64,000 nucleotides of DNA from contig JBAZVD010000001.1 in NCBI GenBank assembly GCA_041661065.1, forward strand, positions 441,417-505,416, written 5' to 3'. A model generated the notes under the pieces. That model was not told where the DNA came from and did not search any database. It saw only the letters and a program-made list of their open reading frames with translations. Every line of letters starts with the position of its first letter. Position 1 is the first letter of the stretch. The translations under genes were made by a program, and so were the position numbers. Of this stretch, positions 4,322 to 61,069 are shown one piece after another. Source of the DNA: Candidatus Peribacteraceae bacterium. GTDB taxonomy: Bacteria; Patescibacteriota; Gracilibacteria; Peribacterales; Peribacteraceae.

Positions 4322-5002
4322 CTACAGCGGCCTCTGCCGCCTCACGTCCCATCCGCTCTGGATGGCTGGTCCGGTGTCGCCGTTGGGCAGGAGCGGCGTC
4401 ACTTGGAAGGTAATGCGCTCGAAACCGAGCGTGAGGGTGTCGAGAGGGATCGCCTCCCCCGTTGCGCTCACGGAAGCGTACGAGAGCACCGTGACGCCGG
4501 AGAGCGTCCAGCGCAGCAGTTCCTGCGGGGCGTTCTGCGTGCGGACCGAAATGACGGCGGAGGCGAGGCGGTCACCCGCCGCGGCCGCCAGGAACAACCG
4601 CGGGGATGCGAGGTTCTCGCGCATCACCACGCTGAAGGAGCGGGGTCCTCCGGTTGCGGCGCGGTCCTGGCGTTCCACGCTGATACCGTAGGACTGCAGG
4701 GGGATATCCACGGATTGGTTCGTGATGGGAAAATCGAGGAGACGGAGGGAAACGCCTACGGGGAATGACTCCCGGATTGCGGAAAAACTCTCGGAGGCGA
4801 TGGAAGACGACGGGCTCCCGTCGGTGCCAAAGTGCGTCACAGGCGAGGATGCGTTCCCCGCAGAGGAGGAGAGAGAACTCTCCTCATTCTGCGTGTCGAA
4901 GATGATGCTGTTGCCGGAGAGCGTTTGCGCGCGCGCCGCAGTCCAACCGATGACCGGGATGAGCACGGCGAACAGTGCCAGGAGTCGGATGACGTACTTC
5001 AT
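4322..5002 (-). CDS. Secreted protein with a C-terminal Hcp1-like (T6SS tube / phage tail-tube fold) domain
   Basis: Signal peptide 'MKYVIRLLALFAVLIPVIGWTAARAQ' is followed by a Ser-rich spacer. The next region, 'SPRLFLAAAAGDRLASAVISVR...LSGVTVLSYASVSATGEAIPLDTLTLGFERITFQV...GPAIQSGWDVRRQ', aligns by eye to Hcp1 'STPNLMMACSSGKHYPQAKLTIRK...LKEVLVSSVSTGGSGGEDRLTENVTLNFAQVQVDY...GPVKYGWNIRQN'. Confidence 0.55.
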   Translation of the reverse strand: MKYVIRLLALFAVLIPVIGWTAARAQTLSGNSIIFDTQNEESSLSSSAGNASSPVTHFGTDGSPSSSIASESFSAIRESFPVGVSLRLLDFPITNQSVDIPLQSYGISVERQDRAATGGPRSFSVVMRENLASPRLFLAAAAGDRLASAVISVRTQNAPQELLRWTLSGVTVLSYASVSATGEAIPLDTLTLGFERITFQVTPLLPNGDTGPAIQSGWDVRRQRPL

Positions 5003-17215: not shown

Positions 17216-17611
17216 ATGTACGGACATCCGCCCTCTCCGGAGGATATTCAAAAATTCTGTGACCGTCCCGGATCACGATGCGATAGAGTGAAAGCAGACG
17301 GGACATGCACGGTGGACAGGTTCAAGAGGGCGGAAAAAAGGACGGGACAGCTCTTTCAGGAATTGATGAAATTGGAAGATCTTCTCGCAGCAATGCGAAA
17401 AGCGTTCACGAAGAGTCTGGGTGAGGCCCAGACAAGCCTGTTCGTCGAACATGTCGATCGTAATCGTACGGCCATTCATTTGGGTTGGACTCTCCAGCAG
17501 AGGAGTGTCGACAATGGCATTTGCATCTTCTCAATCGTCAACGGTGTAAGAGGCAGTCTTTCCGAGTGCGGATTTTGCGCCGATCAAGCAGATGCCGCGG
17601 ATGCAGGGTAA
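17216..17611 (+). CDS. Hypothetical protein with an N-terminal F-C-x6-C-x8-C motif (paralogue A)
   Basis: 'DIQKFCDRPGSRCDRVKADGTC'. The region is AT-richer than its surroundings. Confidence 0.5.
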   Translation: MYGHPPSPEDIQKFCDRPGSRCDRVKADGTCTVDRFKRAEKRTGQLFQELMKLEDLLAAMRKAFTKSLGEAQTSLFVEHVDRNRTAIHLGWTLQQRSVDNGICIFSIVNGVRGSLSECGFCADQADAADAG

Positions 17612-17711
17612 CCATGGTTTCATGTTTCATGAGAGGTACAATGACAGTCGTACGGCATACGGAAGATCATACGGAAGTATCCCAGACCTACTCTTCATCA
17701 TTCGCTCTCCC

Positions 17712-18050
17712 ATGTTTACGAACGAACATTCCATTACGAAGGCGGACATCCGCGCGTTCTGCGCGCAGGACGGGGAGAAGTGTGACCATTACCGGAACGA
17801 CGGAACCTGCGACAAGGATAAGAAGATCCTGACGGATGCACAGGAGCGGAGGATCATGCCGATGAGAGTCCACGAGGCGTACAGACTCGTGCAGACGATC
17901 CTCACAAGACCGATCAGCCAGCAGCAACAGCGTGTGCGTGCGAAGTTATGCAGATATGCGATGAAGGACGGCGCATCGGGAACGATGGATGCCGAAGGAT
18001 TTACGCCGGTGATTGATATCGAATTGTTTCGGTACATCGATACGGAATGA
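17712..18050 (+). CDS. Hypothetical protein with an N-terminal F-C-x6-C-x8-C motif (paralogue B)
   Basis: 'DIRAFCAQDGEKCDHYRNDGTC'. The ATG at 17712 lies inside ORF 17592..18050. Confidence 0.5.
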   Translation: MFTNEHSITKADIRAFCAQDGEKCDHYRNDGTCDKDKKILTDAQERRIMPMRVHEAYRLVQTILTRPISQQQQRVRAKLCRYAMKDGASGTMDAEGFTPVIDIELFRYIDTE

Positions 18051-18068
18051 ACATGATACGATACGGCC

Positions 18069-19250
18069 ATGTTCACGTTGGTTACGGCGAACGCCGAAGG
18101 GAGGCGCGGCAGGTTGATAACGGCGCATGGTGTGCTGGAAACGCCGTTCTTCATGCCGGTGGGGACGGCGGGGGCCATGAAGGGATTGACGCATGAGGAC
18201 CTGCTTGCGCTGGGGGCGGAGGTTCTCCTCTGCAACACGTACCACCTTCACATCCGCCCCGGGGAGGACGTTGTGGCAGATGCCGGAGGGCTCCATGCGT
18301 TCATCAATTGGGAGAAGCCGATCCTCACGGATTCGGGAGGCTTCCAGGTCTTCTCCCTTGAGGCATTGCGGAAGGTGACGGATGAAGGTGTTTCCTTTCA
18401 ATCGCACCTCGACGGCGCCCCCCTCTTCCTCGGCCCCGAAGAAGCGATGGAGATCCAGCACAGGCTGGGTTCGGACATCATCATGTGTTTCGACCAGTGT
18501 CCGCCGTCCAAAGCGCCCCGTGCGGAGATCGAAGCGGCGGTTGAGCGGACGATCAAGTGGGCGGCTGAGTGTAAACGTGTTCATGAGCGGTGGAGGAATC
18601 AGAAGATGCAGAAGATGCAGAAGAAGCAGAGGAACAATCACCGTTCTGTTTCCGAAGAGAATAGCTGCCATTCCTCTGACTCTTCTGATTCCTCTGAATC
18701 CTCTGCATCCACCCCATTACTCTTCGCCATTGTCCAAGGAGGCCTGCACCGTGACCTTCGCAAAAAATGCGCGGAAGAGCTCATCGCCATCGGCTTCGAC
18801 GGGTACGCCATCGGTGGGCTGGCCGTTGGTGAGGAGGAGGACGAAATGTTCGGCGTCCTCGATGACGTGTGCCCCCTGCTCCCCAAGGACAAGCCGCGGT
18901 ACCTGATGGGCGTGGGGAGGATCAGCCAAATGGTGACGGCGGTTTCCAAAGGGATCGATATGTTCGATTCCGTACTGCCCATGCGCGAAGCGCGGCACGG
19001 CACCATCTACCTTTCTGACGGCTCGACGATCCGTATCCTCAACAACAAATTCGTGCACGACCATTCCCCCATCGATCCCCACTCCCCTTCCCCCTTCTCC
19101 CGCACATACAAGAAGAGCTACCTCAACCACCTGATGCGTTCGGGCGAGAGGCTCGGGGAAACCATTGCGTGCATGCAGAACATGGGGATGACGCTGATGG
19201 AGATACGAAAGTTGAGGGAGAGCACTATCGCACAGGGGAATGCAAAATGA
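18069..19250 (+). CDS. tgt: Queuine/preQ1 tRNA-ribosyltransferase homologue, a zinc-ligand-less variant with an insertion
   Basis: 'GRRGRLITAHGVLETPFFMPVGT', 'ILTDSGGFQVFSL', 'GSDIIMCFDQC', 'GGLAVGE' and 'YLMGVG...GIDMFDSV' are all present. The CxCxxC...H positions read S-x-S-x-x-S...Q. Confidence 0.88.
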   Translation: MFTLVTANAEGRRGRLITAHGVLETPFFMPVGTAGAMKGLTHEDLLALGAEVLLCNTYHLHIRPGEDVVADAGGLHAFINWEKPILTDSGGFQVFSLEALRKVTDEGVSFQSHLDGAPLFLGPEEAMEIQHRLGSDIIMCFDQCPPSKAPRAEIEAAVERTIKWAAECKRVHERWRNQKMQKMQKKQRNNHRSVSEENSCHSSDSSDSSESSASTPLLFAIVQGGLHRDLRKKCAEELIAIGFDGYAIGGLAVGEEEDEMFGVLDDVCPLLPKDKPRYLMGVGRISQMVTAVSKGIDMFDSVLPMREARHGTIYLSDGSTIRILNNKFVHDHSPIDPHSPSPFSRTYKKSYLNHLMRSGERLGETIACMQNMGMTLMEIRKLRESTIAQGNAK

Positions 19251-20226: not shown

Positions 20227-20292
20227 AGGGGACTCTGTATCCCTGCGCGGCGCACGCCGATGCGGGGACTCTATTTGCGTTCCCCTTTTCCC

Positions 20293-21660
20293 ATGTCAAA
20301 GAATCATCAACAGGACGTCGTCACTGCGCACTTCCGCATCGTAGGTATGCACTGCGCCAGTTGCGAGCTTCTCCTGGAGCGGAAACTCAAAGCGCTTCCG
20401 GGCATCACCGGCGTATCGGTGAACCACAGGACGGGCAAAGCCGCGCTCAGCGCGGATGCGGCGCATCCCCCTTCCCCTGAGCGGATCGAAGAGACCATAC
20501 GTGCGGCGGGATACCGCATAGCGGATGCCGATTCGTCAGACGCCCTTCCCGTGGAAGCGGACAAGACGAAATGGAAGGAAATCGGCGCATCGCTCGTCAT
20601 TCTCTTCGCGCTGTGGAAACTCCTGCAAGCGTTCGATCTCACGTCCCTCCTGCCGGATACCACCGGCGGCGCCGTGGGCTTGGGCGGTGTGCTGCTCATC
20701 GGCCTCGTCGCCGGCACGTCCAGTTGCCTGGCGGTGACGGGAGGCCTGCTCCTCGCCATCGCGGGGAAGTACAACGAGGCGAACCGGTCGCAGACGGCGT
20801 GGCAGAAGTTCCAGCCCCTCCTCCGGTTCAACATCGGCCGCCTCGCATCCTACTTCGTACTCGGCGGCGTGGTGGGCCTCATCGGGCAATCCATCACCAT
20901 CAGCGCGCGGATGACGGGCGTCATGAATCTTGCGGTGGCATTCATCATGCTGTGGCTCGCCCTTTCCATGCTGGGTTTGCTTCCCAAGCAATCGTTCATA
21001 AGGCCGCCAAAGCGCCTCTCCCATTGGATCGCCGGACTGGCGGAGCACTCCCATCCGCTCGCCCCCTTCGCGCTGGGCGCACTCACGTTCTTCCTGCCCT
21101 GCGGGTTCACGCAGTCGCTGCAGCTCGTAGCGCTCGCTTCCGGAAACGTTGTAACCGGGGCACTCACCATGTTCGTCTTCGCGCTGGGCACGCTCCCCTC
21201 CCTGCTCGGCATCAGCGCCGTAAGTTCCACGGCCAAGGGAACGGGGCGGCGACTGTTCCTGCGCTTCGCGGGGACGCTCGTCCTCGTCCTCGCGCTCTAC
21301 AACGGAAACAACGCGCTCGCGCTCAACGGCATCGACCTGGGAGGCATGTTCTTCCCGGGGCAATCCGGCGCGGCGGCTTTTGCCGTGGAGAAGGACGGAA
21401 AACAGGAAGTGCGCATGGCCGTCCAGAGCTACCGGTACCAACCGGACACGCTCACCATCAAAGCGGGCGTGCCCGTCCGCTGGGTGGTGGACGGGACGGG
21501 CGCCTCGGGTTGCACCAGCGCCATCGTCATCCCCTCACTCGACGTCTTCCGTGTGCTCGAACGCGGCGAGAATGTGATTGAATTCACCGCAACGAAAACG
21601 GGAAAGCTGCCTTTTAGCTGTTCCATGGGGATGGTACGCGGTACCTTTACCGTCATCTAA
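20293..21660 (+). CDS. Fusion protein: HMA metal-binding domain, a multi-pass DsbD/TauE-like membrane domain and a C-terminal cupredoxin-like domain
   Basis: 'FRIVGMHCASCELLLERKL' (MxCxxC), about six TM helices with 'FFLPCGF', and a C-terminal 'YQPDTLTIKAGVPVRWVVDG...LPFSCSMGMVRGTFTVI'. Confidence 0.8.
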   Translation: MSKNHQQDVVTAHFRIVGMHCASCELLLERKLKALPGITGVSVNHRTGKAALSADAAHPPSPERIEETIRAAGYRIADADSSDALPVEADKTKWKEIGASLVILFALWKLLQAFDLTSLLPDTTGGAVGLGGVLLIGLVAGTSSCLAVTGGLLLAIAGKYNEANRSQTAWQKFQPLLRFNIGRLASYFVLGGVVGLIGQSITISARMTGVMNLAVAFIMLWLALSMLGLLPKQSFIRPPKRLSHWIAGLAEHSHPLAPFALGALTFFLPCGFTQSLQLVALASGNVVTGALTMFVFALGTLPSLLGISAVSSTAKGTGRRLFLRFAGTLVLVLALYNGNNALALNGIDLGGMFFPGQSGAAAFAVEKDGKQEVRMAVQSYRYQPDTLTIKAGVPVRWVVDGTGASGCTSAIVIPSLDVFRVLERGENVIEFTATKTGKLPFSCSMGMVRGTFTVI

Positions 21661-21706
21661 GATGTTCCATCGTCTATTTCACTTTTTACTTCATTCATTT
21701 CCCACC

Positions 21707-22480
21707 ATGAACGCAGTGCAATGGCAGAAATCATCGTCATCCTCAAAAGACCCTTCCCCCAAGAGCGCGTCCTCCAAGCATTCCTCCAACATCTGGTTTC
21801 CCGTCTCCCTGGGGCTCATCGGCGTCATCGTCGGTTACACCATCGGGAATTGGACACAGGTGACGGGAAGCCTCGCACTCGATCCGAACGGGGTTCCGTC
21901 CGTGCAGGAGGATCAGCAATCGTCCCCACCCCGGTATGAAGATATGCCGGCAGTGGACTTTACAAAGGACCACTTCAAAGGGAATACGGACGCCGACATC
22001 GCCCTTGTGGAATACACGGACTACGAATGTCCCTACTGCAGAAGCGCACATCCCACGCTGGAGCAGCTTGAAGCCGATTACGGCGGTAAAGTCGTGTGGG
22101 TACTGCGCCAGTTTCCGCTCACGAGCATCCATCCCAACGCGCTGCCTGCGGCGGAAGCGTCGGAATGCGTCGCGGAGCTCGGCGGGAACGACTCATTCTG
22201 GACGTTCACGAACGCCGTCATGACGCAGCAAGACGCCTTCGGTAAGCTTCCGGAACTGGCCCAAACGGCGGGAGTGGACGGCGCGGTGTTCACCGCATGC
22301 ATCGAAAGCGGCAAGTATAAGCAGGAAATCCAGGATGAGAGCGCCGCGGGGTCTGCGGCAGGGGTGCAAGGGACACCCGCGACCTTCGTGGTGAACCTCA
22401 AGACGCAGGAGACGCAGTTTGTCAGCGGAGCGCAGTCCTACGAGGGCTTCAAGTCCGTCATCGATTCCATGTTGTTGTAA
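21707..22480 (+). CDS. Membrane-anchored DsbA-family thiol:disulfide oxidoreductase (CPYC)
   Basis: 'IWFPVSLGLIGVIVGY' (TM) and 'VEYTDYECPYCRSAHPTL...FPLTSIHP...ASECVAEL'. An alternative start is at 21662. Confidence 0.85.
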   Translation: MNAVQWQKSSSSSKDPSPKSASSKHSSNIWFPVSLGLIGVIVGYTIGNWTQVTGSLALDPNGVPSVQEDQQSSPPRYEDMPAVDFTKDHFKGNTDADIALVEYTDYECPYCRSAHPTLEQLEADYGGKVVWVLRQFPLTSIHPNALPAAEASECVAELGGNDSFWTFTNAVMTQQDAFGKLPELAQTAGVDGAVFTACIESGKYKQEIQDESAAGSAAGVQGTPATFVVNLKTQETQFVSGAQSYEGFKSVIDSMLL

Positions 22481-22486
22481 ATCCCC

Positions 22487-22720
22487 TTGTTATCCATGCA
22501 AACCACTGTTTCCATCCCCGGCATGCATTGCGCGTCCTGCGCGGCGCTCGTGAAGGATGTCACGTCCGCATTCCCGGAGATACGGCACATTGAAGTGGAT
22601 TTGGAGACGCGGCGCGTGACGATGGAGCATGACGATGCGTTCACCATCGAACATTGGAAGGACGAAGTGCAGGGATTGGGGGAGGAATACACGGTGTATC
22701 CCGTCGCCTCGAACGCCTGA
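22487..22720 (+). CDS. copZ: Copper chaperone, HMA domain
   Basis: 77 aa with '[18 protein letters not shown]'. Confidence 0.85.
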   Translation: MLSMQTTVSIPGMHCASCAALVKDVTSAFPEIRHIEVDLETRRVTMEHDDAFTIEHWKDEVQGLGEEYTVYPVASNA

Positions 22721-22830
22721 CGGGATAATGGAAGGGCGTACGGAAACCGCTGAACTGCGGCCGCCCTTCCTACGTCTTGCCGATCCGATCCTATACCTGT
22801 ATCCTAGGTACGATCGTCACCCCCGCTTTC

Positions 22831-23103
22831 ATGAATCCCCAGAAGAAGAAAACGCTCATCGCGCTGCGCAAGGCACGGACGCTCCTCTCCGTGGTCGAAC
22901 GGATGGTGCAGAAGGATGAGTACTGCATCGACATCATGCAGCAGACGCTCGCCTCCATCGGCTTGCTCAAGGGAGTGCACGCAAAACTCATGGAAGGGCA
23001 CCTGGACAGCTGTTTCATCAATGCCATGAGGGCGCGCAATAGCCAACAGAAAGAGAGAATGATCAAGGAGATCCTCACGGTGTCGAAGCTGGCGAACAAG
23101 TGA
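22831..23103 (+). CDS. csoR: CsoR/RcnR-family metal-sensing transcriptional repressor
   Basis: 'LIALRKARTLLSVVERMVQKDEYCIDIMQQ...LMEGHLDSCF' carries the C...H-x3-C ligand pattern. The ORF opens at 22777. Confidence 0.85.
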   Translation: MNPQKKKTLIALRKARTLLSVVERMVQKDEYCIDIMQQTLASIGLLKGVHAKLMEGHLDSCFINAMRARNSQQKERMIKEILTVSKLANK

Positions 23104-23243
23104 GCGCCGATAACCTGTGAGGCCTGACGAAGAGTATTGAGTAAGGATCGTAAAACCTGTTCGGGTTTATGACCACCCCCCCAGGTGCATTGACTACGCA
23201 GGATCTCGACACTATTCTGGCAGTGTCCTTTCTTTTCATCCCC

Positions 23244-25592
23244 ATGGAACGCGTATCCCTTTCGCTCTCCGGCATGCACTGCGCGTCCTGCGCCCTGCTC
23301 ATCGAGAGAGGCTTGAAGAAAACACCGGGTGTGCAACAGGCGAACGTCAACTTTGCAGCCGAAAAGGCATCCATCCTCTTCGACACGTCCGCGGTGCATG
23401 TGGAGGACCTTCTCCTCGCCGTGAAGAAAGCGGGTTATGCAGCCGTACTCGTGGACGAGAAGGACAGGGATTACGAACGGAAGAAGCGCGAGGCGGAGAT
23501 CCGCGGATACCGCGACAGGCTCATCGTTGGCGCGGTTTTCAGCATCCCGATGCTCTACTTCATGATGTTGGATTTCTTTCCATCCCTCCCCGGAGGTTCG
23601 TTCCTCTTTCCTTATGTAGGGATCGCATCCCTGCTTCTCACGACGCCGGTCCAATTCATCATAGGCGCGGGTTTCTACAAGGGCATGTGGTCCAGCCTCA
23701 AGATGAAGACATTCAATATGGACAGCCTGATTGCCATAGGGACCTCAACCGCATTCGTTTACAGCGCAGTCAACTTCTTCCTCTACGTCGCAAGGATGGG
23801 ATCGGTGCTCGGCCAGGGTGGCGATAAGATCCCGGAACTCTACTTCGAAACGGCAGCATTCCTCATCACCTTCGTCATTCTCGGCAAGTGGCTGGAAGCG
23901 AAGGCGAAAGGGCAGGTATCCGACGCCATCCGCAAGCTCATGAACCTGCAAGCGAGGAGTGCACGCGTGGTGCGCGGTGGGAAGACACTCGACATCCCCG
24001 TGGAGGAAGTGGTCGCGGGGGATACTATCGTCGTGCGACCCGGCGAAACGGTCCCCGTGGACGGGACGATCGTGAAGGGTAGGTCGTCCGTGGATGAATC
24101 ACTGCTCACGGGGGAGAGCATCCCCGTGGAGAAGAACCCCGGCGACCGCGTCATCGGCGCAACGCTCAACAAGAACGGTGGGTTTGAATACCGGGCGGAG
24201 AAAGTGGGCGCGGATACCATGCTCGCGCAGATCATCCGCCTTGTGGAGGAAGCGCAGGGTTCGCGCGCGCCCATCCAGGCTTTTGCGGACCGCATTGCAG
24301 CCTGGTTCGTTCCCGCGGTCATCATCATCGCCATCCTCACGTTCGCCGTCTGGTTCGCGCTGGGGTCTTCCCTCAGCTTCGCGCTCATGGCCTTTACGGC
24401 GGTGATCGTGATCGCCTGCCCGTGCGCATTGGGTCTCGCCACGCCCACGGCCATCATGGTTGGCACGGGGAAGGGCGCACAGCAGGGCATCCTCATCAAG
24501 GGCGGGGAACCGCTGGAAGCGGCGGACAAGATCACGGCGATCGTCTTCGACAAGACGGGGACGCTCACCAAGGGGAAGCCGGAAGTCACGGACGTGGTGG
24601 CCGCGGGAGCGATGGGGACAGACGAGGTCCTCACAATCGCAGCCAGCCTGGAGCGTTCCTCCGAACATCCTCTGGCGGAAGCCATTTACGCGTATGCGCA
24701 GGGGAAAGGCATCGCGCTGCGGGATGTGACGGAGTTCACTGCCGTTCCGGGGCAAGGGATTCAGGCGCAGATCGTCGGTGTCACGTACTTCTTCGGAAAC
24801 CGGATGATGGTCGGGAAAGGTGCGGCAGCGTTGACCGAAACGCTGGAGAAGACGCTGCAGGAGCTGGAGGAACAGGGGAAGACGGCGATGGTCTTGGCGA
24901 CGAAGGAGGCGGTGCTCGGTATCGTCGCCGTCGCCGATACCCTTAAAGAAACAACGAAGGAGGCGGTGGACCGATTGCGGCGCATGAAGATCGCCACGTA
25001 CATGATCACGGGTGACAACGAGAGGACGGCGCGCGCCATTGCGGGACAAATCGGGATGGAGAACGTGCTTGCGGAAGTGTTGCCCGCAGACAAGGCGCAG
25101 GCAGTGAAGAAACTGCAGGAAGCGGGGCATAGTGTTGCCATGGTCGGCGACGGCATCAACGACGCCCCCGCGCTGGCGCAGGCGGAACTGGGCATCGCCA
25201 TGGGTTCGGGGACGGATGTGGCCATGGAGACGGGCGGTATCGTCATCATACGGAACGACCTGCGCGATGTGATCACCGCCATCAGGCTCTCTCGCGAGAC
25301 CATGGGAAAGATCAAACAGAATATGTTCTTCGCCCTCTTTTACAACGTGATCGGCATCCCCATAGCGGCTCGCGCCCTCTATCCCCTCCTCGGCTTGGTT
25401 CTCCGGCCGGAACTGGCGGGGTTGGCCATGGCATTCAGTTCCGTATCCGTGGTCACCAATTCTCTCCTCATACGCTTCTTCCGTCCCGGACGCATCAACT
25501 GGCTCTCCGCCCTTGCGCCCGCCGTGATGGTCGTAGGTTTCACGGCCCTCTTCCTCGGTTTTGCGGTCTTCAGTTCCGGCCGCATGTCGTGA
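23244..25592 (+). CDS. copA: Copper-translocating P1B-type ATPase
   Basis: N-terminal HMA '[14 protein letters not shown]', with 'TGESIPVEK', '[10 protein letters not shown]', 'FDKTGTLT', 'ITGDN' and '[11 protein letters not shown]'. The ORF opens at 23169. Confidence 0.93.
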
Positions 25593-27913: not shown

Positions 27914-30900
27914 ATGAAAGCCTACCGATCGAAGATGATCGCCGGAACGAGCATCGCACTCCTGGTGCTTCCTCTTCTCTCCCATGCGATTGATACGGCG
28001 TTTACGCCGGTGGCGAACGCAACACCCGCTGTGAATGAATGCAAGGATGGCATAGACAACGACGGGGACGGGAAGATCGATGCACTTGTGGAACTGGACC
28101 CCAACAACGGCCAGACGAAGTCTTGGTATGCGGATTCCGTCGGCATACGCGCTTTCTACAACCAAGTAGCCGCACAGCGTGGCTGGAGGCAGATACCCAC
28201 GGCGTGGGACGGCCAGGGAATGGTGAGCAATGACTCAGTCACAGCGGATAAGATCTGCGAGATCGCCGGGTACAGCACCGTCGCATCACGGAGCTGCCCC
28301 GAGTACGGCTCTTCCGGCCGCTGCAACTTCACGAGCTGCAACAACAACACCATGGGGGTATGGAAAGCTTCCTCGAACAACATGAAAATCGTGGGGGCAT
28401 GCGGTTACACCTGGATCGCTTCCCTTACCTGCAAGAACAAACTGGCAGCCTGCAGCGACGGAATTGATAACGACGGGGACGGGAAAGTAGACATGGAGGA
28501 TCCCGGGTGTGCGAGCATCAATGATGACAGCGAAGTGGAGCATGATCCGGGTTGTCAGAATCCCGATGATCCCACGGAATCCACGGCACAGTGTTCCGAC
28601 GGCATCGATAATGACGGTGATGGCGCAATCGACTTTCCCGCTGACTTCAGTTGCTCATCCTCAACGGACAACGACGAAACGCTTCCCAAGTCCAAGTGTC
28701 AGGACGGGGTTGATAACGATGGGGACGGTCTGATCGACTATCCGCAGGATCCCGGTTGTGTAAATAACCAGGACAATGATGAAGGGAATCCGATCCAGTG
28801 TTCCGATGGCATTGATAACGACAATGACGGTGCGACGGATTATCCCAACGATTTCAGCTGTACGAGCGCAACGGACAACGACGAAACGCTTCCCAAGGCG
28901 CAGTGCCAGGACGGCCTGGACAACGACGGGGATGGCAAAATAGATTATCCCGCTGATCAAGGCTGCACCAATAAGCAGGACAATGATGAAGATAATGCAT
29001 CTGTGTACCTGTCGCATGTCAATATTGACGGATGCAACGTCACCGTACAATACAGCAGGGAAGGGAATACCTGTGCACATTTGCTGAGAGCAGATAACTC
29101 TAAGATTCTTCATACGCAAAATGTATTCTGCCAATTGAGTGATACTGTAACGCTCCCTCTCACGAAGTTTAGCGCAGAATTGCAACCAGGCTTACGCGTC
29201 AAACTGTGTCATGGCAACAACTATAATGATTGTAGCGACGTTATCACTGTAACTGGCGGAGGTGTTTGCCAAGAAGCCCAGTGCCAAGATGGCATTGATA
29301 ACGACAATGACGGTGCGACGGACTATCCCAACGATTTCAGCTGTACCAGCGCAACGGACAACGACGAAACGCTTCCCAAGTCCAAGTGTCAGGACGGGGT
29401 TGATAACGATGGGGACGGTCTGATCGACTATCCGCAGGATCCCGGTTGTTTGAATAACCAGGACAATGATGAAGGGAATCCGATCCAGTGTTCCGATGGC
29501 ATTGATAACGACAATGACGGTGCGACGGATTATCCCAACGATTTCAGCTGTACGAGCGCAACGGACAACGACGAAACGCTTCCCAAGGCGCAGTGCCAGG
29601 ACGGCCTGGACAACGACGGTGACGGGAAGAAGGATAGCCAGGATCCGGGATGCGTTGATTTCCAAGACAACGATGAATACAACGCACCGGCCTCCTCATC
29701 TTCTTCTTCATCGGTTGGCCAAGGACAATGCAAGGACGGCCTGGACAACGACGGTGACGGGAAGATCGATGCACTCGTGGAACTGAACCCGAACAACGGC
29801 CAGACGAAATCTTGGTATGCGGATTCCGTCGGCATACGCGCTTTCTACAACCAAGTAGCCGCACAGCGTGGCTGGAGTCAGATACCCACGGCCTGGAATG
29901 GCCAGGGCATGGTGAGCAATGACTCGGTGACAGCCGACAAGATCTGCGAAATCGCCGGGTTCAGTACCGTCGCATCACGGAGCTGCCCCGAGTATGGCGC
30001 TACCGGACGCTGCAACTTCACGAGCTGCTACAACAACACCATGGGGGTCTGGAACGCTTCCTCGAACAACATGAGTGTCGTGGGGGCTTGCGGCCATCCG
30101 TGGCTTTCCAACCTCACCTGCCAGAACAAACTGGCAGCCTGCAGCGACGGGATCGATAGCGACGGGGACGGGAAAGTGGACATGAACGACAACGGCTGCG
30201 CGTCCGTGAACGACGACAGCGAGATACAGCATGATCCGGATTGTCAGAACCCCGATGACCCGACGGAATCCTCCTACCAGTGTTCTGACGGCATCGATAA
30301 TGACAACGACGGTGCGACGGATTATCCCAACGACTACAGCTGCTCCACGGCATACGATACCGATGAGTTCAATCCCAAGTCACAGTGCCAGGACGGCATA
30401 GACAATGAAGATGACGGGAAGATCGATTATCCGCAGGATCCCGACTGCAGCAGCCTGCAGGATAATGACGAAGGCGCCGCACCCCAGTGCAACGACGGGT
30501 TGGATAACGACAACGACGGCGCGATCGATTACCCCAGCGAATTCAGCTGCCAGGACCGACACGATGACGACGAAACGTTTCCCAAATCCCTGTGCCAGGA
30601 CGGCATTGATAACGATCAAGACGGAAAGGTCGACTATCCGCAGGATCCCGGATGTACGAACAATCAGGACAATGACGAAGGGAACACGTACCAGTGCAAC
30701 GACGGGGTGGATAACGACGCCGACGGCGCCACGGACTACTCCAATGACTTCAGCTGCGGAAGCCCGACCGATGACGATGAAACGCTTCCCAAGGCGCAGT
30801 GCCAGGACGGGATTGATAACGATGGGGACGGAAAGGTCGACTACCCTCAAGATCCGGGTTGCACAAGCAAGCAGGACAATGACGAGTTCAATCAGCCAAC

Positions 30901-33226
30901 GGAGGCGAATGTGGTCATTGAGAAGAGCGGATCCCAGGGTATAAAGTTCGGAGGGAACATCGTGTACAAGGTGGAAGTCCGCAATGAAGGGCCGGCTGTT
31001 GCACAAAGTGTCACCGTGACGGACGTTGTCCCCGCGGGTTTCGTGTTCAACCCGCAACTTTCAACCAATACGTGCGTACAGGATGGATCCATCATTCGGT
31101 GTAGTTCATTCAACCTTGCGCCTCTGGACTCACGCGTCCTTCTCATAGCCTTCGTGGTTCCCATGCCCGTGAGCGGATGCATTCCCATGACCGTGAGCAA
31201 TACGGCCGTAGTGGGTGCGACGAACGATACGACGCCTTCGAACAACCAGAGTACGGCAACTACGGATGTGCTTTGTAACGACCAGAGCAGCTCCTCCTCC
31301 AGCTCGTCTTTCAGTTCATCCAGCGGGATATTCTACGGTTGCATAGAAGTGATTAAGGAGACCTACGATACGGTCGGTAATCCTCTTACACCCGTTGCAC
31401 AATTCACATTTACGTTGGACGGCATTACGCAAGATAAGAACGACGGAACGGGCCATCTGAGGTTCGATAATGTCACTCTTGGAGACCATCAAGTAACGGA
31501 ATTGGTGCCGGCCGGGTGGGAACAAATGTTCGTTACACCCGCTGAAGGAAAGATATACGTTGCCGGCGGAGATCAGTGTTCTGTGTTGACGTTCAAGAAT
31601 ATGCAGCATCTATTCGGATCGTCTTCTAGTGCTTCCAGCAGTTCCAGCGTAGTGAGCTCCAGTTCTTCCCAAAGCTCCCAGTCTTCCTCCTCGGAAGAGT
31701 CGTCTCTTAGTTCATCCAGTTCCTCATCGTCTTCCACATCATCCCTATCTTCCCAATCTTCCTCCGAAGATTCTTCCAGCAGCTCTTCCGTAATCACCGG
31801 ATGCATTGAGGTGAAGAAAGAAACGTACAACACGCAGGGTGTCCCCTTGAATCCGGTCGCGCAATTTACGTTCTTGCTGGACGGGACCACTCAGAAACAG
31901 AACGACGGTACGGGATTGCTGCGTTTCGACAACGTTTCCGTCGGAAGCCACCAGGTGTCCGAATCCGTTCCGGACGGTTGGACGCCGATCTCCGTAACGC
32001 CGGAGAACGGCATTGTGGACGTACCCGGAGGCGACACGTGTGTTGCCCTCACATTCAAGAACCGGCAATCCATCACCAGTTCAAGTTCATCTTCCAGCAG
32101 CTCTGCCGATTCCAGTGCATCATCTTCGGATTCATCTTCCAGTTCTGCTGCAACCACGGGTTGCATTGACGTCATCAAGGATACGTTCGACACGGTGGGT
32201 AATCCCCTTGTTCCCGTCCCCCAGTTCACGTTCAAGAGGGACGATGTGGAGATGAAGAAGAATGACAGTTCCGGAAAACTTCGATTCACAAATGTTACGG
32301 TGGGAACGCACAAGATCGTAGAGGAGGTGCCGCCAACGTGGGAATTGGTTTCCGTTACCCCTTCCAGCGGATCCGTTGTCGTGGTGCCGGGGGACACGTG
32401 CGCGGAAATCAGGTTTAAGAACAAGCAGGTGATTACCTCATCCTCTTCCAGTTCTTCATCCTCCGATTCCTCGTCGTCTATTTCTTCCTCCAGTTCGTCT
32501 TCATCCTCCTCATCGTCATCGTCCCTTTCCAGTTCCAGCAGCAGTTCCTCCTCCTCTTCCTCGTCCAGCTCACAGCAGCAGATCATCATCATTGAGCGGA
32601 CATGCGATGAGTGCCAGCCGAAGAAGGAACGCGGAAGCCACAGGCATGGTATAGACATCATCCAGATCATCGCGCAGAGCAGGCTGGCGAAGAAGGACAA
32701 AGTCCCCGTGGAGCTGGTGATTGACAAGTCATCCGACCGCGGAGAAGTGCAAGGCGGCGACTACTACAGTTACACGATCAGCGTGCGCAACATCTCCACG
32801 CGCACTGCGACCAATGTGATTGTAACCGATTACTTCGACCAACAGAGGCTGACCGTCCTCGATACGGATGGCGGAAAGCTGACCTACGAGGGTCTCCAAT
32901 GGAATATCCCTTCCATGAAGCCTTCGGAACTCGTCACATACCGGTATCACGTACGCCTGACGGAAAACGTGAAGCACGGTGAGATCATCCACAACACGAG
33001 CATCGTGCGTGCGGACGAGGCTCCGGAACGCATGGCATTCAACGACGTCAGTGTTATCAAGGTCATGCCCCAGACGGGGACGTTCGCCCTTGCGGAATCC
33101 GATGCGAAGTTCGTCAATCCCCTGAAGAACGGCGGCGCTGCGGACACGATCCCGTTGACGGTCCTCATCACCTTCCTCACATTGGGAACGGCCGTGGGCG
33201 GATCATTCACCAAACGCTGGCTCTGA
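27914..33226 (+). CDS. Giant secreted cell-surface protein (1770 aa) with, in order: signal peptide; two copies of a novel Cys domain; about 24 TSP3/MopE-like Ca-binding Cys modules; a DUF11-like domain; three Cna-B/SpaA-like domains; a second DUF11-like domain; and an 'MPQTG' motif with a C-terminal TM anchor
   Basis: Signal 'IAGTSIALLVLPLLSHA'. Repeated 'QC(S/Q)DG(I/V)DND(N/G)DG..DYP.D(F/P).C' modules. 'VIEKSG...YKVEVRNEGPAVAQSVTVTD' is DUF11-like. 'GCIEVIKETYDTVGNPL...LTFKN' occurs three times. Poly-Ser spacers are present. The C-terminus reads 'VMPQTG...IPLTVLITFLTLGTAVGGSFTKRWL'. Confidence 0.9.
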   Translation: MKAYRSKMIAGTSIALLVLPLLSHAIDTAFTPVANATPAVNECKDGIDNDGDGKIDALVELDPNNGQTKSWYADSVGIRAFYNQVAAQRGWRQIPTAWDGQGMVSNDSVTADKICEIAGYSTVASRSCPEYGSSGRCNFTSCNNNTMGVWKASSNNMKIVGACGYTWIASLTCKNKLAACSDGIDNDGDGKVDMEDPGCASINDDSEVEHDPGCQNPDDPTESTAQCSDGIDNDGDGAIDFPADFSCSSSTDNDETLPKSKCQDGVDNDGDGLIDYPQDPGCVNNQDNDEGNPIQCSDGIDNDNDGATDYPNDFSCTSATDNDETLPKAQCQDGLDNDGDGKIDYPADQGCTNKQDNDEDNASVYLSHVNIDGCNVTVQYSREGNTCAHLLRADNSKILHTQNVFCQLSDTVTLPLTKFSAELQPGLRVKLCHGNNYNDCSDVITVTGGGVCQEAQCQDGIDNDNDGATDYPNDFSCTSATDNDETLPKSKCQDGVDNDGDGLIDYPQDPGCLNNQDNDEGNPIQCSDGIDNDNDGATDYPNDFSCTSATDNDETLPKAQCQDGLDNDGDGKKDSQDPGCVDFQDNDEYNAPASSSSSSSVGQGQCKDGLDNDGDGKIDALVELNPNNGQTKSWYADSVGIRAFYNQVAAQRGWSQIPTAWNGQGMVSNDSVTADKICEIAGFSTVASRSCPEYGATGRCNFTSCYNNTMGVWNASSNNMSVVGACGHPWLSNLTCQNKLAACSDGIDSDGDGKVDMNDNGCASVNDDSEIQHDPDCQNPDDPTESSYQCSDGIDNDNDGATDYPNDYSCSTAYDTDEFNPKSQCQDGIDNEDDGKIDYPQDPDCSSLQDNDEGAAPQCNDGLDNDNDGAIDYPSEFSCQDRHDDDETFPKSLCQDGIDNDQDGKVDYPQDPGCTNNQDNDEGNTYQCNDGVDNDADGATDYSNDFSCGSPTDDDETLPKAQCQDGIDNDGDGKVDYPQDPGCTSKQDNDEFNQPTEANVVIEKSGSQGIKFGGNIVYKVEVRNEGPAVAQSVTVTDVVPAGFVFNPQLSTNTCVQDGSIIRCSSFNLAPLDSRVLLIAFVVPMPVSGCIPMTVSNTAVVGATNDTTPSNNQSTATTDVLCNDQSSSSSSSSFSSSSGIFYGCIEVIKETYDTVGNPLTPVAQFTFTLDGITQDKNDGTGHLRFDNVTLGDHQVTELVPAGWEQMFVTPAEGKIYVAGGDQCSVLTFKNMQHLFGSSSSASSSSSVVSSSSSQSSQSSSSEESSLSSSSSSSSSTSSLSSQSSSEDSSSSSSVITGCIEVKKETYNTQGVPLNPVAQFTFLLDGTTQKQNDGTGLLRFDNVSVGSHQVSESVPDGWTPISVTPENGIVDVPGGDTCVALTFKNRQSITSSSSSSSSSADSSASSSDSSSSSAATTGCIDVIKDTFDTVGNPLVPVPQFTFKRDDVEMKKNDSSGKLRFTNVTVGTHKIVEEVPPTWELVSVTPSSGSVVVVPGDTCAEIRFKNKQVITSSSSSSSSSDSSSSISSSSSSSSSSSSSSLSSSSSSSSSSSSSSSQQQIIIIERTCDECQPKKERGSHRHGIDIIQIIAQSRLAKKDKVPVELVIDKSSDRGEVQGGDYYSYTISVRNISTRTATNVIVTDYFDQQRLTVLDTDGGKLTYEGLQWNIPSMKPSELVTYRYHVRLTENVKHGEIIHNTSIVRADEAPERMAFNDVSVIKVMPQTGTFALAESDAKFVNPLKNGGAADTIPLTVLITFLTLGTAVGGSFTKRWL
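28040..28615 (+). repeat. Intragenic duplication, copy 1 of a roughly 576-bp module (novel Cys domain plus flanking DND modules)
   Basis: High nucleotide identity to 29729-30305 (offset 1689 bp). Runs such as 'tcttggtatgcggattccgtcggcatacgcgctttctacaaccaagtagccgcacagcgtggctgg' are identical. Confidence 0.85.
28664..28929 (+). repeat. Near-identical 266-bp intragenic repeat, copy 1
   Basis: Almost base-for-base identical to 29354-29619 (offset 690 bp = 230 codons). Confidence 0.9.
29354..29619 (+). repeat. Near-identical 266-bp intragenic repeat, copy 2
   Basis: See 28664-28929. Confidence 0.9.
29729..30305 (+). repeat. Intragenic duplication, copy 2 of the roughly 576-bp module
   Basis: See copy 1 at 28040-28615. 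Confidence 0.85.
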
Positions 33227-51602: not shown

Positions 51603-52331
51603 TCACGAACGTGAATCAACAGATGCAGGGAAACTGAAAGGGGTGAAAGTCGTTGTCTTGTCATAATAGTCTTCCTTTTCCTTGCGTTTGAGCAACGAGA
51701 CAAGGCGGTACGTGAGAGGCGTGAACAGGACTTCGATGGCAACTTTGAAGACGTAGTTTGCAATCACAAGGTTCCAGAACAGTGACCACGGAAACACGCC
51801 GAAGAACGTCGCTATGGCTATGAACGCAGCCGTATCAATCCCCTGCCCCACCAACGTGGAGCCGATCGTCCTCATCCACAAGTGGCGCCCCTCCATCCGC
51901 ACTTTCATCTTCGCAAGGATGACGGAATTGCTGAATGCACCGAAGAAGTATGCGACGAGGCTCGCAATGATGATCCCTCCGCTGCTCACGCCGCCGAGGA
52001 TCGAAATGTACGCCGCATCACCTGCGTACTGCTGCCACTGTGCTTCCCCCGGCAGCGCGGAGAGGATCCAGAACACGGCACTCATCGCGGCGGTGGCCGC
52101 AAAGCCGACCCAAATGACGCGCCGCGCACGCTTGAAGCCGTAGACTTCGGTAAGGATATCGCCGAAGATGTAACTCAAGGGAAAGAGGAGCGTCCCTCCG
52201 TCGAACGAAAGCCGGAGGCCGTAGAGGGAAACACCCCAATCCACGATCTTCGCGGATGAGGCGATGTTGCTCACGAGGAGCACCGCGACGAACGCGGCCA
52301 TGACGAGATCGAAGTAACGGTAGGACTTCAT
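51603..52331 (-). CDS. yhhQ: Queuosine-precursor transporter (VUT/DUF165, YhhQ-like)
   Basis: Six TM helices with 'LLFPLSYIFGDILTEVYGFKRARRVIW' and 'GQGIDTAAFI'. Confidence 0.82.
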   Translation of the reverse strand: MKSYRYFDLVMAAFVAVLLVSNIASSAKIVDWGVSLYGLRLSFDGGTLLFPLSYIFGDILTEVYGFKRARRVIWVGFAATAAMSAVFWILSALPGEAQWQQYAGDAAYISILGGVSSGGIIIASLVAYFFGAFSNSVILAKMKVRMEGRHLWMRTIGSTLVGQGIDTAAFIAIATFFGVFPWSLFWNLVIANYVFKVAIEVLFTPLTYRLVSLLKRKEKEDYYDKTTTFTPFSFPASVDSRS

Positions 52332-59673: not shown

Positions 59674-60342
59674 TCACTTCGTCACTACGACCGATCCCGT
59701 CATGGTCGGATGGAAGGCGCAGTGGTACGCATATGATCCCGTAGCGGTAAAGGTGTAGGAGTACGTTTCACCTTTCGTCATCACGCCGCTCAGAGGCCCT
59801 TGCTGTCCCTGGTTTCGCGTGACGGTATGCGGGACATTGGATTCCTCATTATTTTTCCATGTCACCTGGGTACCGATCTTCACCGTCAAGCGCGCAGGCG
59901 TGTACGCGTGGTTCCTGAGCGACACGTTCATCACTTGCATGCCGGTCCCGGTGCTCACGCTGCTGCTCGAAGAACTGCTTGAAGAACTGCTGGAAGACGA
60001 GCTGCTCGAAAGGGAACTGCTCGAGGAGCTCGAAGACTGTGAGGAACTGACGCTGCTGGCGGAGGAGCTCATCATACTGCTGCTGGAACCGGATGAAGGC
60101 CACTGCCGGTCACGCCAAGCTTCATGATCTTCCTGGTACACTTCCCAAAAGCACCAACGGTACAATCGGAGTCGTCCCAACCCAGACCTACTTCCGCGGT
60201 CCTGGAAGCGCGTATTCGACTCGTTCATGCGTATGCAGGTGTCTATGCGGGTACCGAACGTCGGCGGCTGGGCGGCCATTACTCCTCCGACAGCCATCAG
60301 ACCTGCAATGGCACCGAGGAGAATCGTCATGCTCTTCTTCAT
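59674..60342 (-). CDS. Secreted plastocyanin/amicyanin-like type-1 copper protein with a long poly-Ser linker
   Basis: Signal 'MKKSMTILLGAIAGLMAVGGVMA', about 60 Ser-rich residues, and a cupredoxin 'VTWKNNEESNVPHTV...YAYHCAFHPTMTGSVVV' with H...C-x2-H-x2-M ligands. Start verified at 60342. Confidence 0.8.
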   Translation of the reverse strand: MKKSMTILLGAIAGLMAVGGVMAAQPPTFGTRIDTCIRMNESNTRFQDRGSRSGLGRLRLYRWCFWEVYQEDHEAWRDRQWPSSGSSSSMMSSSASSVSSSQSSSSSSSSLSSSSSSSSSSSSSSSSSVSTGTGMQVMNVSLRNHAYTPARLTVKIGTQVTWKNNEESNVPHTVTRNQGQQGPLSGVMTKGETYSYTFTATGSYAYHCAFHPTMTGSVVVTK

Positions 60343-60490
60343 AGTGAAAGGAGAAAGGAATGAATAAGCCTCCCTTGTAGACGTTCTGGTACAATGGTTC
60401 TTACTCGACAGCGGAAAGAGCCCGTATGGCCGTACGTCTCCCATGATGCTTCCCCTTTCCACACCTGTTATGCCAACACGTTCGACAGCA

Positions 60491-61069
60491 ATGGCAATAC
60501 CGTTTATGCTCTTCCTCGCCCTCGCCGGCGCCCTGTGGTGGGAGATGCCGTCCAAATCTCCCGTCTACGCGCAGACGAGCAACCTCCAGATCTGTTCTCA
60601 GAATGCGGTGATCGAACGCACAAACGGCTTCGTGGGTGCGTACAACAGGTACCATGAGGAGATGCAGCAAGCGTTCTTTAACCGACGCGATGCGGAAGTG
60701 CAGGCATGGAACAACCCGGACATCAAACAGCGCAACAAAGACCTAAAACGCGCCGCTTCCGATTTTACGCATGCGTACAACGGTATATCGTCACGTCTCA
60801 GTTCCACGAAGAGAGACGTATGGAACACCTACTATCGTGCAATGAATGACTGCAAATATGCCAATCGCTCGTCAAGGAGCAGCAGATGGTATTCCTCCAG
60901 CCGTTCATCCGTTACATCCTCTTCCTCCTCACGTGTGGGATGCTTCTGCACGCTCCAGTACGATCCCGTTTGCGGCTCGGACATAAAGACGTATGGAAAC
61001 TTCTGCCAAGCGCACTGTGCCGGAGTCACCATTTTGCATGAAGGGAAGTGCGGCGAGCAGGGATACTAA
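60491..61069 (+). CDS. Secreted protein with a C-terminal Kazal-type inhibitor domain
   Basis: Signal '[17 protein letters not shown]', a helical region, a Ser/Arg linker, and '[37 protein letters not shown]'. The ORF opens at 60443. Confidence 0.7.

Follow-up and report, generated by a model that had tools for sequence, protein, structure and literature searches.

A conserved lineage of Tgt without the zinc ligands in Candidatus Peribacteria

In this study, we have described the tgt gene in a stretch of 64,000 nucleotides (the window) from a Candidatus Peribacteraceae bacterium (GenBank assembly GCA_041661065.1, contig JBAZVD010000001.1, positions 441,417 to 505,416), which encodes a bacterial Tgt in which all four ligands of the structural zinc are replaced. 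The features of the gene, numbered along the window and aligned where stated to the Tgts of Escherichia coli and Zymomonas mobilis, are the following:

18069..19250, + strand: tgt coding sequence, a single open frame of 393 amino acids plus stop (P0001)
18330..18335, + strand: Asp88-Ser89 of TDSGGFQ, aligned with Z. mobilis D102/S103 and invariant in 45 of 45 Peribacteria Tgts
18591..18707, + strand: low-complexity insert, residues 175-213 (KMQKMQKKQ...SSDSSDSSESS), found in close relatives only; the HMMER match is split around it
18966..18971, + strand: Asp300, aligned with the Z. mobilis nucleophile D280, followed by Ser301 (usually Cys)
19083..19100, + strand: former zinc knuckle Ser339-Pro340-Ser341-Pro342-Phe343-Ser344, in place of C-x-C-x-x-C by alignment to E. 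coli and Z. mobilis Tgt
19176..19178, + strand: codon CAG of Gln370, aligned with the fourth ligand, His349 of Z. mobilis

The translated open reading frame (ORF) scores 431.5 bits against TIGR00430, the NCBIfam equivalog model of bacterial Tgt (cut-off 306.75), and 429.6 bits against the Pfam family TGT, PF01702 (E = 1.2e-128; cut-off 26.3), while a HMMER comparison with solved chains gives E. coli and Z. mobilis Tgt as the best matches in the PDB (E ~1e-99). The initial annotation had spoken of a tgt homologue, and the model score together with the alignment identifies the gene as the orthologous bacterial tgt. It is the only TGT-family gene in a genome of 1.385 Mb (4 contigs, 99.8% complete), and the closest named relatives of its product, at 76-79% identity, belong to Candidatus Peribacteria or Peregrinibacteria, within the Candidate Phyla Radiation (CPR). 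Three other identities were considered and rejected. Against the archaeosine enzyme TgtA (TIGR00432) the protein reaches 120.5 bits for a cut-off of 350, and it ends at residue 393 without the extra C1, C2 and PUA domains; against the DNA-guanine transglycosylase DpdA (NF041059) it reaches 27 bits for a cut-off of 200. The pattern is also the opposite of that of a QTRT2-like non-catalytic subunit, with the aspartates kept and the zinc site lost, in a genome with one TGT gene. By descent, as read from its sequence, the protein is thus to be classed as a variant Tgt and not as a canonical zinc Tgt, the Zn(Cys3His) site being taken as a trait of the studied members that does not define orthology.

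The replacement of the four zinc ligands is real. In the HMMER alignment, C318, C320, C323 and H349 of Z. mobilis, whose PDB entry has identical chain and residue numbering and was used for the mapping, correspond to S339, S341, S344 and Q370, as had been claimed from the letters of the DNA, and no set of Cys or His residues occupies the ligand positions. The stretch 'DPHSPSPFSRTYKKSYLNHL...ACMQN' pairs without gaps with '...TIHN' of E. coli and with 'DSECHCAVCQKWSRAYIHHL...TEHN' of Z. mobilis; at the knuckle, 'DPHSPSPFS' stands opposite 'DPECDCYTC' of E. coli and 'DSECHCAVC' of Z. mobilis. The flanks are common to this protein and the solved Tgts, with the invariant Asp336 upstream, SYLNHL downstream and the Asn that follows the fourth ligand. 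The Ser339 codon is TCC (19083-19085), and the span first assigned to the site, 19083-19178, runs exactly from this codon to that of Gln370.

The catalytic apparatus is intact. All the motifs listed in the initial annotation are present (TDSGGFQ, FDQC with Gln143, GGLAVGE, YLMGVG and GIDMFD), Gln143 standing where Z. mobilis has Glu157. In 45 of 45 Peribacteria Tgts, residues D88, S89, D142, C144, Q223, G250, A252, V253, E255 and D300 are invariant, equivalent to Z. mobilis D102, S103, D156, C158, Q203, G230, A232, V233, E235 and D280, and L251 is kept in 44 of 45. We take C158, V233 and E235 of Z. mobilis to have roles in the pocket for the queuosine precursor preQ1. The roles of D102, S103, D156, Q203 and G230 are as described in PMC5699537. 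The GGLAVGE motif accompanied by Cys144, as in E. coli, is the signature of the preQ1 type, as distinguished from the GG[LS][AS]G of queuine salvagers (PMC11570991). The Ser that follows the nucleophile ('MFDS'), also pointed out in the initial annotation, is indeed present as Ser301 and represents a minority state in the lineage. The insert at residues 175-213 (39 residues) appears to evolve almost neutrally, with pairwise ratios of nonsynonymous to synonymous divergence (dN/dS) from 0.13 to >1, at least about 0.6 in 11 of the 14 computable pairs, values taken from an unreliable alignment.

The replacement is old and conserved. Peribacteria Tgts were gathered from the genomes of relatives and from named genomes, leaving 45 distinct full-length sequences after removal of duplicates, and the ligand columns were counted from hmmalign, as the MAFFT alignment broke up near ligand 3 and was not used. 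The Cys3His set is absent from all 45, as well as from four fragments spanning the site (L021 plus the C-terminal parts of L020, L075 and L113), i.e., from 49 of 49 sequences. The composition of the former site in the 45 sequences is as follows:

Residue 301, after the nucleophile: Cys in 43, Ser in 2
Residue 339, ligand 1: Ser in 45
Residue 340, after ligand 1: Pro in 42
Residue 341, ligand 2: Ser in 39, Ala in 3, Val, Thr and His in 1 each
Residue 344, ligand 3: Ser in 38, Gly in 5, Ala and Cys in 1 each
Residue 370, ligand 4: Gln in 45

In seven other families of the same class, all 21 Tgts keep C-x-C-x-x-C...H (CCCH). With the ligand columns taken out, a FastTree phylogeny of 229 rows places the zinc-less Peribacteria proteins in one clade (46 rows, support 100), whose sister consists of 15 CCCH rows (support 97), 12 of them loci that are all assigned to a single family within the same class and the other 3 cluster representatives. 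As the clade is monophyletic and its sister retains the ligands, the simplest history is a single replacement of the zinc site, in the ancestor at the base of the family. Of the family genomes, 24 of 24 in one sample and 36 of 40 in another yielded a Tgt.

A relaxed or decaying gene had been raised at the outset as a possible objection. The codon-level data are not those of a relic, and they support purifying selection on the Peribacteria tgt. Ser339 is kept through four synonymous codons (45 of 45), Gln370 through CAG in 30 and CAA in 15 of the 45 sequences, and Ser344 through both serine codon families (TCN in 6, AGY in 32). Within the genus, pairwise Nei-Gojobori dN/dS ranges from 0.06 to 0.18 for the whole gene and from 0.07 to 0.32 for residues 311-393, rough values that show only a dN far below dS, given that dS is saturated (>1) in most pairs. 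The divergence of the subdomain relative to the barrel is 1.51 in Peribacteria and 1.58 in the zinc-bearing sister family, and there is thus no sign of relaxed constraint on the former zinc subdomain.

Structure prediction gives a fold close to that of the canonical enzyme. AlphaFold2, which takes no account of metals and was given the 45 Peribacteria sequences alone, produced a model with a mean predicted local distance difference test score (pLDDT) of 89.1 and a predicted TM-score (pTM) of 0.88. The former zinc subdomain reaches a pLDDT of 96-98 in 10-residue blocks over residues 311-380, and the insert at 175-213 is the sole weak part (52-69). Foldseek superimposes the model on Z. mobilis TGT with a TM-score of 0.80-0.87 over ~386 columns and ~42% identity. 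A homodimer is predicted with a score of 0.82, against 0.00 for the best control, although homologous Tgt dimers have already been solved and the score may come from this likeness; of the proteins solved as pairs, 20 of 30 score as high as this, compared with 1 of 23 among those solved as single chains. In three homodimer runs, at least 98% of the contacts agree, with a partner pLDDT of at least 87, and the predicted interface (residues 34-41, 59-80, 329-332 and 343-365) is that of the canonical Tgt contact. By alignment, it includes the counterparts of Z. mobilis K52, F92, W326, Y330, H333 and E339, presumably the hot spot of the Tgt dimer, residues with which many of the Z. mobilis mutant PDB entries among the Foldseek matches are concerned. 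The lineage-specific His332 contacts residues 71-78 of the partner chain in the predicted dimer, a position that would account for its conservation with no need for a new metal site. In the canonical enzyme, the zinc subdomain is described as a dimerization element, and only the homodimer binds tRNA (PMC5699537).

The genomic context is that of a queuosine pathway. QueA is encoded outside the window (G000:C1:867576-868601, E = 3.9e-104), and within it lies a gene for a putative importer, whose substrate is suggested by its family:

51603..52331, - strand: YhhQ-type (Vut_1) membrane protein, candidate preQ1/preQ0 importer (Pfam PF02592, E = 2e-47)

The tRNAs for Tyr (GTA), His (GTG), Asn (GTT) and Asp (GTC) all carry U33-G34-U35 (T-G-T in the anticodon loop). 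Family models found none of QueC, QueF, QueG and QueH in the genome, and each of these models recovered its family in named control genomes. QueA and a YhhQ-type transporter together with GUN tRNAs, in a genome where none of these four families was found, form the pattern of preQ1 salvage, which points to a cell that imports preQ1, inserts it by means of Tgt and then employs QueA. The suggestion in the initial annotation that a yhhQ gene in the window indicates a pathway in use is in keeping with this context, and the Vut_1 gene is real. With QueA present and neither QueG nor QueH found, the modification may stop at epoxyqueuosine, or another reductase may exist. About half of the Peribacteria family is in a 'tgt only' state, like Bartonella and Pelagibacter, for which this state has been described, the Tgt of Bartonella henselae having been assayed (PMC11570991). 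Joint loss of tgt and queA was considered as a sign of coupling and dropped: the four genomes without tgt also lack queA, but so do about half of those that bear tgt.

The same loss is found elsewhere. Among the named-genome matches from other bacteria, 50 Tgts are CCCH and five are not, the latter from a Pelagibacteraceae genome, the alphaproteobacterium IMCC14465, a Bacteroidales and a Verrucomicrobiales metagenome-assembled genome, and one uncultured bacterium; QueA was found in three of five other genomes with a zinc-less Tgt that were tested, and not in the SAR11 genome tested. In a sample of Pelagibacteraceae (G319, G324-G363), 36 of 41 genomes have Tgt, and the full set of ligands is present in none of the 30 loci listed (L151-L180). 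In these SAR11 proteins, the ligand positions hold mostly Val, Ile or Leu, mostly with at most one Cys left and often with the His kept, and GGLAVGE and GIDMFDC are intact. A set of 1.84 billion proteins contains 13,536 Tgt-like cluster representatives; we also examined the best 150, of which 120 are 340-460 residues long. Among these 120, 83 are CCCH, 26 are non-canonical (26 of the 109 that could be aligned) and 11 are unaligned at the C-terminus, proportions that may over-represent zinc-less proteins, as the representatives were ranked by likeness to the zinc-less query. The number of changes of ligand state on the tree is at least 17, an upper-leaning estimate from FastTree and a single alignment. 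The SAR11 proteins branch apart from the Peribacteria, and their loss is, on this phylogeny, an independent one.

A genome-wide avoidance of zinc was ruled out, as classical Cys4 modules are kept in the same genome. The pattern CxxC...CxxC occurs in 23 of 1,494 crude ORF calls, and the proteins with Cys4 modules include DnaJ (CXXCXGXG domain), NrdR (zinc ribbon), RecR, UvrA, PriA, a T2SSE ATPase and a prepilin peptidase. Judging from these motifs, the loss of the zinc site is specific to Tgt and does not reflect a zinc-free cell. In the course of this survey, an unusual C-terminal CxxC...CxxC was observed in the primary sigma-70 factor (528 aa, G000:C1:593052-594635, L142), at about residue 498 and after region 4, and a similar tail ends the MscL protein (168 aa, G000:C1:508561-509064, L148).

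Taken together with the models, these data lead us to consider it probable, at roughly three chances in four, that the gene encodes a working Tgt of Candidatus Peribacteria whose zinc subdomain, without its four ligands, folds without that metal. We infer an active enzyme that forms dimers and is free of metal. In the mechanism that we propose, Tgt would put salvaged preQ1 in the place of G34 in tRNA-Tyr, -His, -Asn and -Asp, through the canonical chemistry suggested by its conserved residues, with Asp300 as the nucleophile and a preQ1 pocket made by Asp88, Ser89, Asp142, Cys144, Gln223, Gly250, Leu251-Ala252-Val253 and Glu255, and QueA would then act on the preQ1-tRNA. As the sequences and the phylogeny show, the subdomain that Zn(Cys3His) clamps in all characterized TGTs lost its four ligands once, at the base of the family, and Ser-Pro-Ser-Pro-x-Ser ... 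Gln became fixed there and is conserved to this day. The subdomain would fold without metal, the rigidity of the prolines and hydrogen bonds of the Ser and Gln side chains probably replacing the zinc, and would keep the canonical dimer contact through Lys38, Phe78, Tyr/His347, Tyr351, His354 and Glu360.

Several observations weigh against this proposal. The gene is dispensable in the family, since no tgt was found in 4 of 40 family genomes that are 98-99% complete. In three relatives (L020, L075, L113) it is split over two frames near the variable insert, either because a frameshift has made it a pseudogene or because the low-complexity stretch was misassembled, and one match (G222) contains an in-frame TAG. 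On the side of the pathway, the failure to find QueG or QueH in the genome means that gene content does not fix the end product, and QueA is present in 29 of 61 family genomes, so that a link to QueA does not hold across the family. The saturation of dS noted above leaves the selection values rough. Both AlphaFold2 and the complex model ignore metals and have learned from zinc-bearing homologues, and their high confidence is no proof of a metal-free fold. Finally, in work by Chong et al. in 1995, mutants of the E. coli zinc ligands reportedly lost both zinc and activity.

Other explanations of the same sequence deserve consideration. A structural metal might still be bound through ligands recruited nearby, for example Cys368, His332, His347 and His354, which are all typical of the lineage (C368 in 36, H332 in 42, H347 in 37 and H354 in 43 of the 45 sequences). 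We regard this as unlikely, because no invariant set of four is found, Cys368 being replaced by Ala, Ser, Gln or Thr in 9 of 45 and residue 347 by Tyr, Leu, Met or Thr in 8 of 45. Residues 332, 347 and 354 all belong to the interface of the predicted dimer, as do their canonical counterparts W326 and H333, which explains their conservation, and Cys368, two residues before position 370 on a helix, should face away from it. It is distinctly improbable that the loss of zinc reflects a shift of substrate, towards another base such as queuine or preQ0 or towards another nucleic acid such as DNA, in the manner of DpdA. The contribution of the zinc subdomain to the dimer that binds tRNA speaks for such a shift, as does phage 9g DpdA, which is without two of the four zinc residues (PMC5699537). 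Nevertheless, the protein falls far below the DpdA and TgtA cut-offs given above, its GGLAVGE motif and Cys144 form a pocket of the preQ1 type (PMC11570991), QueA, which acts on preQ1-tRNA, is in the genome, and the dimer contact residues are kept.

A dead or decaying relic, or a non-catalytic partner similar to QTRT2, would fit the absence of tgt from some family genomes, its splitting in three relatives and the lack of QueA in about half of the family. We find it very unlikely in view of the catalytic and pocket residues, invariant in 45 of 45 sequences, which is the opposite of QTRT2, a protein that keeps zinc and loses the catalytic aspartates (PMC3074131). The dN far below dS is at odds with a relic, and the single TGT gene of the genome leaves no catalytic partner to be served. 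As for a misalignment, an assembly error or a frameshift, nothing was found in favor of an artefact and we give it almost no credence: the HMMER alignment is ungapped with conserved flanks, the same replacement is present in 49 of 49 independently assembled relatives that cover the site, and two DNA sequencing runs contain the whole stretch, although this DNA may itself derive from them.

A working Tgt with a metal-free subdomain, our preferred explanation, has to be set against what is known of the family. TGT is a textbook example of a zinc metalloprotein, and the Shigella enzyme is a drug target. Its zinc ligands have been stated to be absolutely conserved, sequences without them having been deleted (PMC3074131), and in Acinetobacter Tgt is treated as a zinc enzyme of a zinc-sensitive pathway (PMC9894224). 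The initial annotation held a zinc-free but otherwise intact Tgt to be unusual, and the Peribacteria protein is indeed unlike every characterized TGT and contrary to the published absolute conservation; however, loss of the site recurs in sequence space (Peribacteria, SAR11 and others), and the absence of metal is an inference from the missing ligands. No published bacterial Tgt without zinc ligands was found in full-text searches of the open literature. The enzyme itself is already known; what is new is a conserved lineage of bacterial Tgts without the zinc ligands.

With the E. coli and Z. mobilis enzymes (EC 2.4.2.29; PDB 10fb, 1ozm, 1q2r and others) the Peribacteria Tgt shares the TIM barrel and C-terminal subdomain, the nucleophile, the preQ1 pocket and the dimer-contact residues; its homodimer, as far as predicted, matches theirs, and it differs in having S, S, S and Q for the ligands, the 39-residue insert, Gln for Glu157 and Ser after the nucleophile. 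The Tgts of SAR11 and IMCC14465 are likewise bacterial Tgts with an intact core and without Cys3His (L095 reads S-C-A-N), from small streamlined genomes, but they form a separate clade, the SAR11 replacements are more variable, and the SAR11 genome without QueA fits the 'tgt only' state of PMC11570991. Phage 9g DpdA is a TGT-family member in which the zinc ligands are also not conserved (PMC5699537), although it belongs to a DpdA/arcTGT-like branch acting on DNA, whereas the Peribacteria protein is of the tRNA type and all four of its ligands are gone. FolE2 (GTP cyclohydrolase IB) and QueD2, precedents for a queuosine pathway that escapes zinc (PMC9894224; a FolE2 reference is listed in PMC5699537), are similar in metal sparing only, since they are separate paralogues induced by zinc limitation with an altered catalytic metal, while here the sole orthologue has lost a structural site constitutively and lineage-wide.

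These comparisons suggest a wider, tentative idea, on balance doubtful as it stands: that the structural zinc of Tgt is dispensable and has been shed repeatedly in streamlined oligotrophs (groundwater Peribacteria, SAR11, IMCC14465 and others), as an adaptation that cuts the cell's need for zinc or does away with a thiol cluster open to attack by oxidants or copper. In the Peribacteria, Ser-Pro-Ser-Pro-x-Ser ... Gln would then be a single fixed clamp, evolved to work without metal, by which the enzyme stays dimeric and active. The ligand replacement itself is at variance with a trait of the family that has been published as 'absolute', and comparable losses turn up again in abundant lineages, among them SAR11, one of the major groups of marine bacteria. 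If a Tgt without ligands does work, zinc would not be needed for fold, dimer or catalysis, and queuosine modification would be independent of the zinc supply at the Tgt step, unlike in Acinetobacter (PMC9894224). The ligand-less Tgts offer natural templates for studies of the role of zinc in the canonical enzyme, and quality filters that require the zinc motif would wrongly discard real Tgt genes.

Regarding the surroundings of the gene, the sequencing runs that contain the stretch are groundwater metagenomes only, and no RNA run is listed among them. The neighbors of tgt are clpP and miaA on one side and rplU on the other, with a copper or heavy-metal cluster further downstream. Directly upstream of tgt, on the + strand, two small paralogous ORFs (17216-17611 and 17592-18050) share F-C-x5-C-D-x4-D-G-T-C; neither matches a Pfam family, and homologues are found neither in the tgt loci of relatives nor elsewhere in the genome. 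A conserved neighboring partner that supplies cysteines was ruled out, given that these ORFs are missing from the tgt loci of relatives. Just downstream of rplU, positions 20260-25592 (+ strand) encode an HMA-DsbD_2-cupredoxin fusion, a CsoR-type metal-sensitive repressor and a heavy-metal P-type ATPase with an HMA domain, and another cupredoxin protein is found at 59677-60555 (- strand). As regards other tRNAs of the genome, those detected by ARAGORN include a tRNA-Ile with the anticodon TAT but no more than two CAT tRNAs, so that AUA may be decoded by tRNA-Ile(UAU) instead of a lysidine-modified CAU tRNA. In this CPR genome, the window also encodes an Hcp-like protein (T6SS_HCP) at 4325-5002 (- strand) and a DUF11 surface protein of 1,770 aa at 27914-33223 (+ strand).

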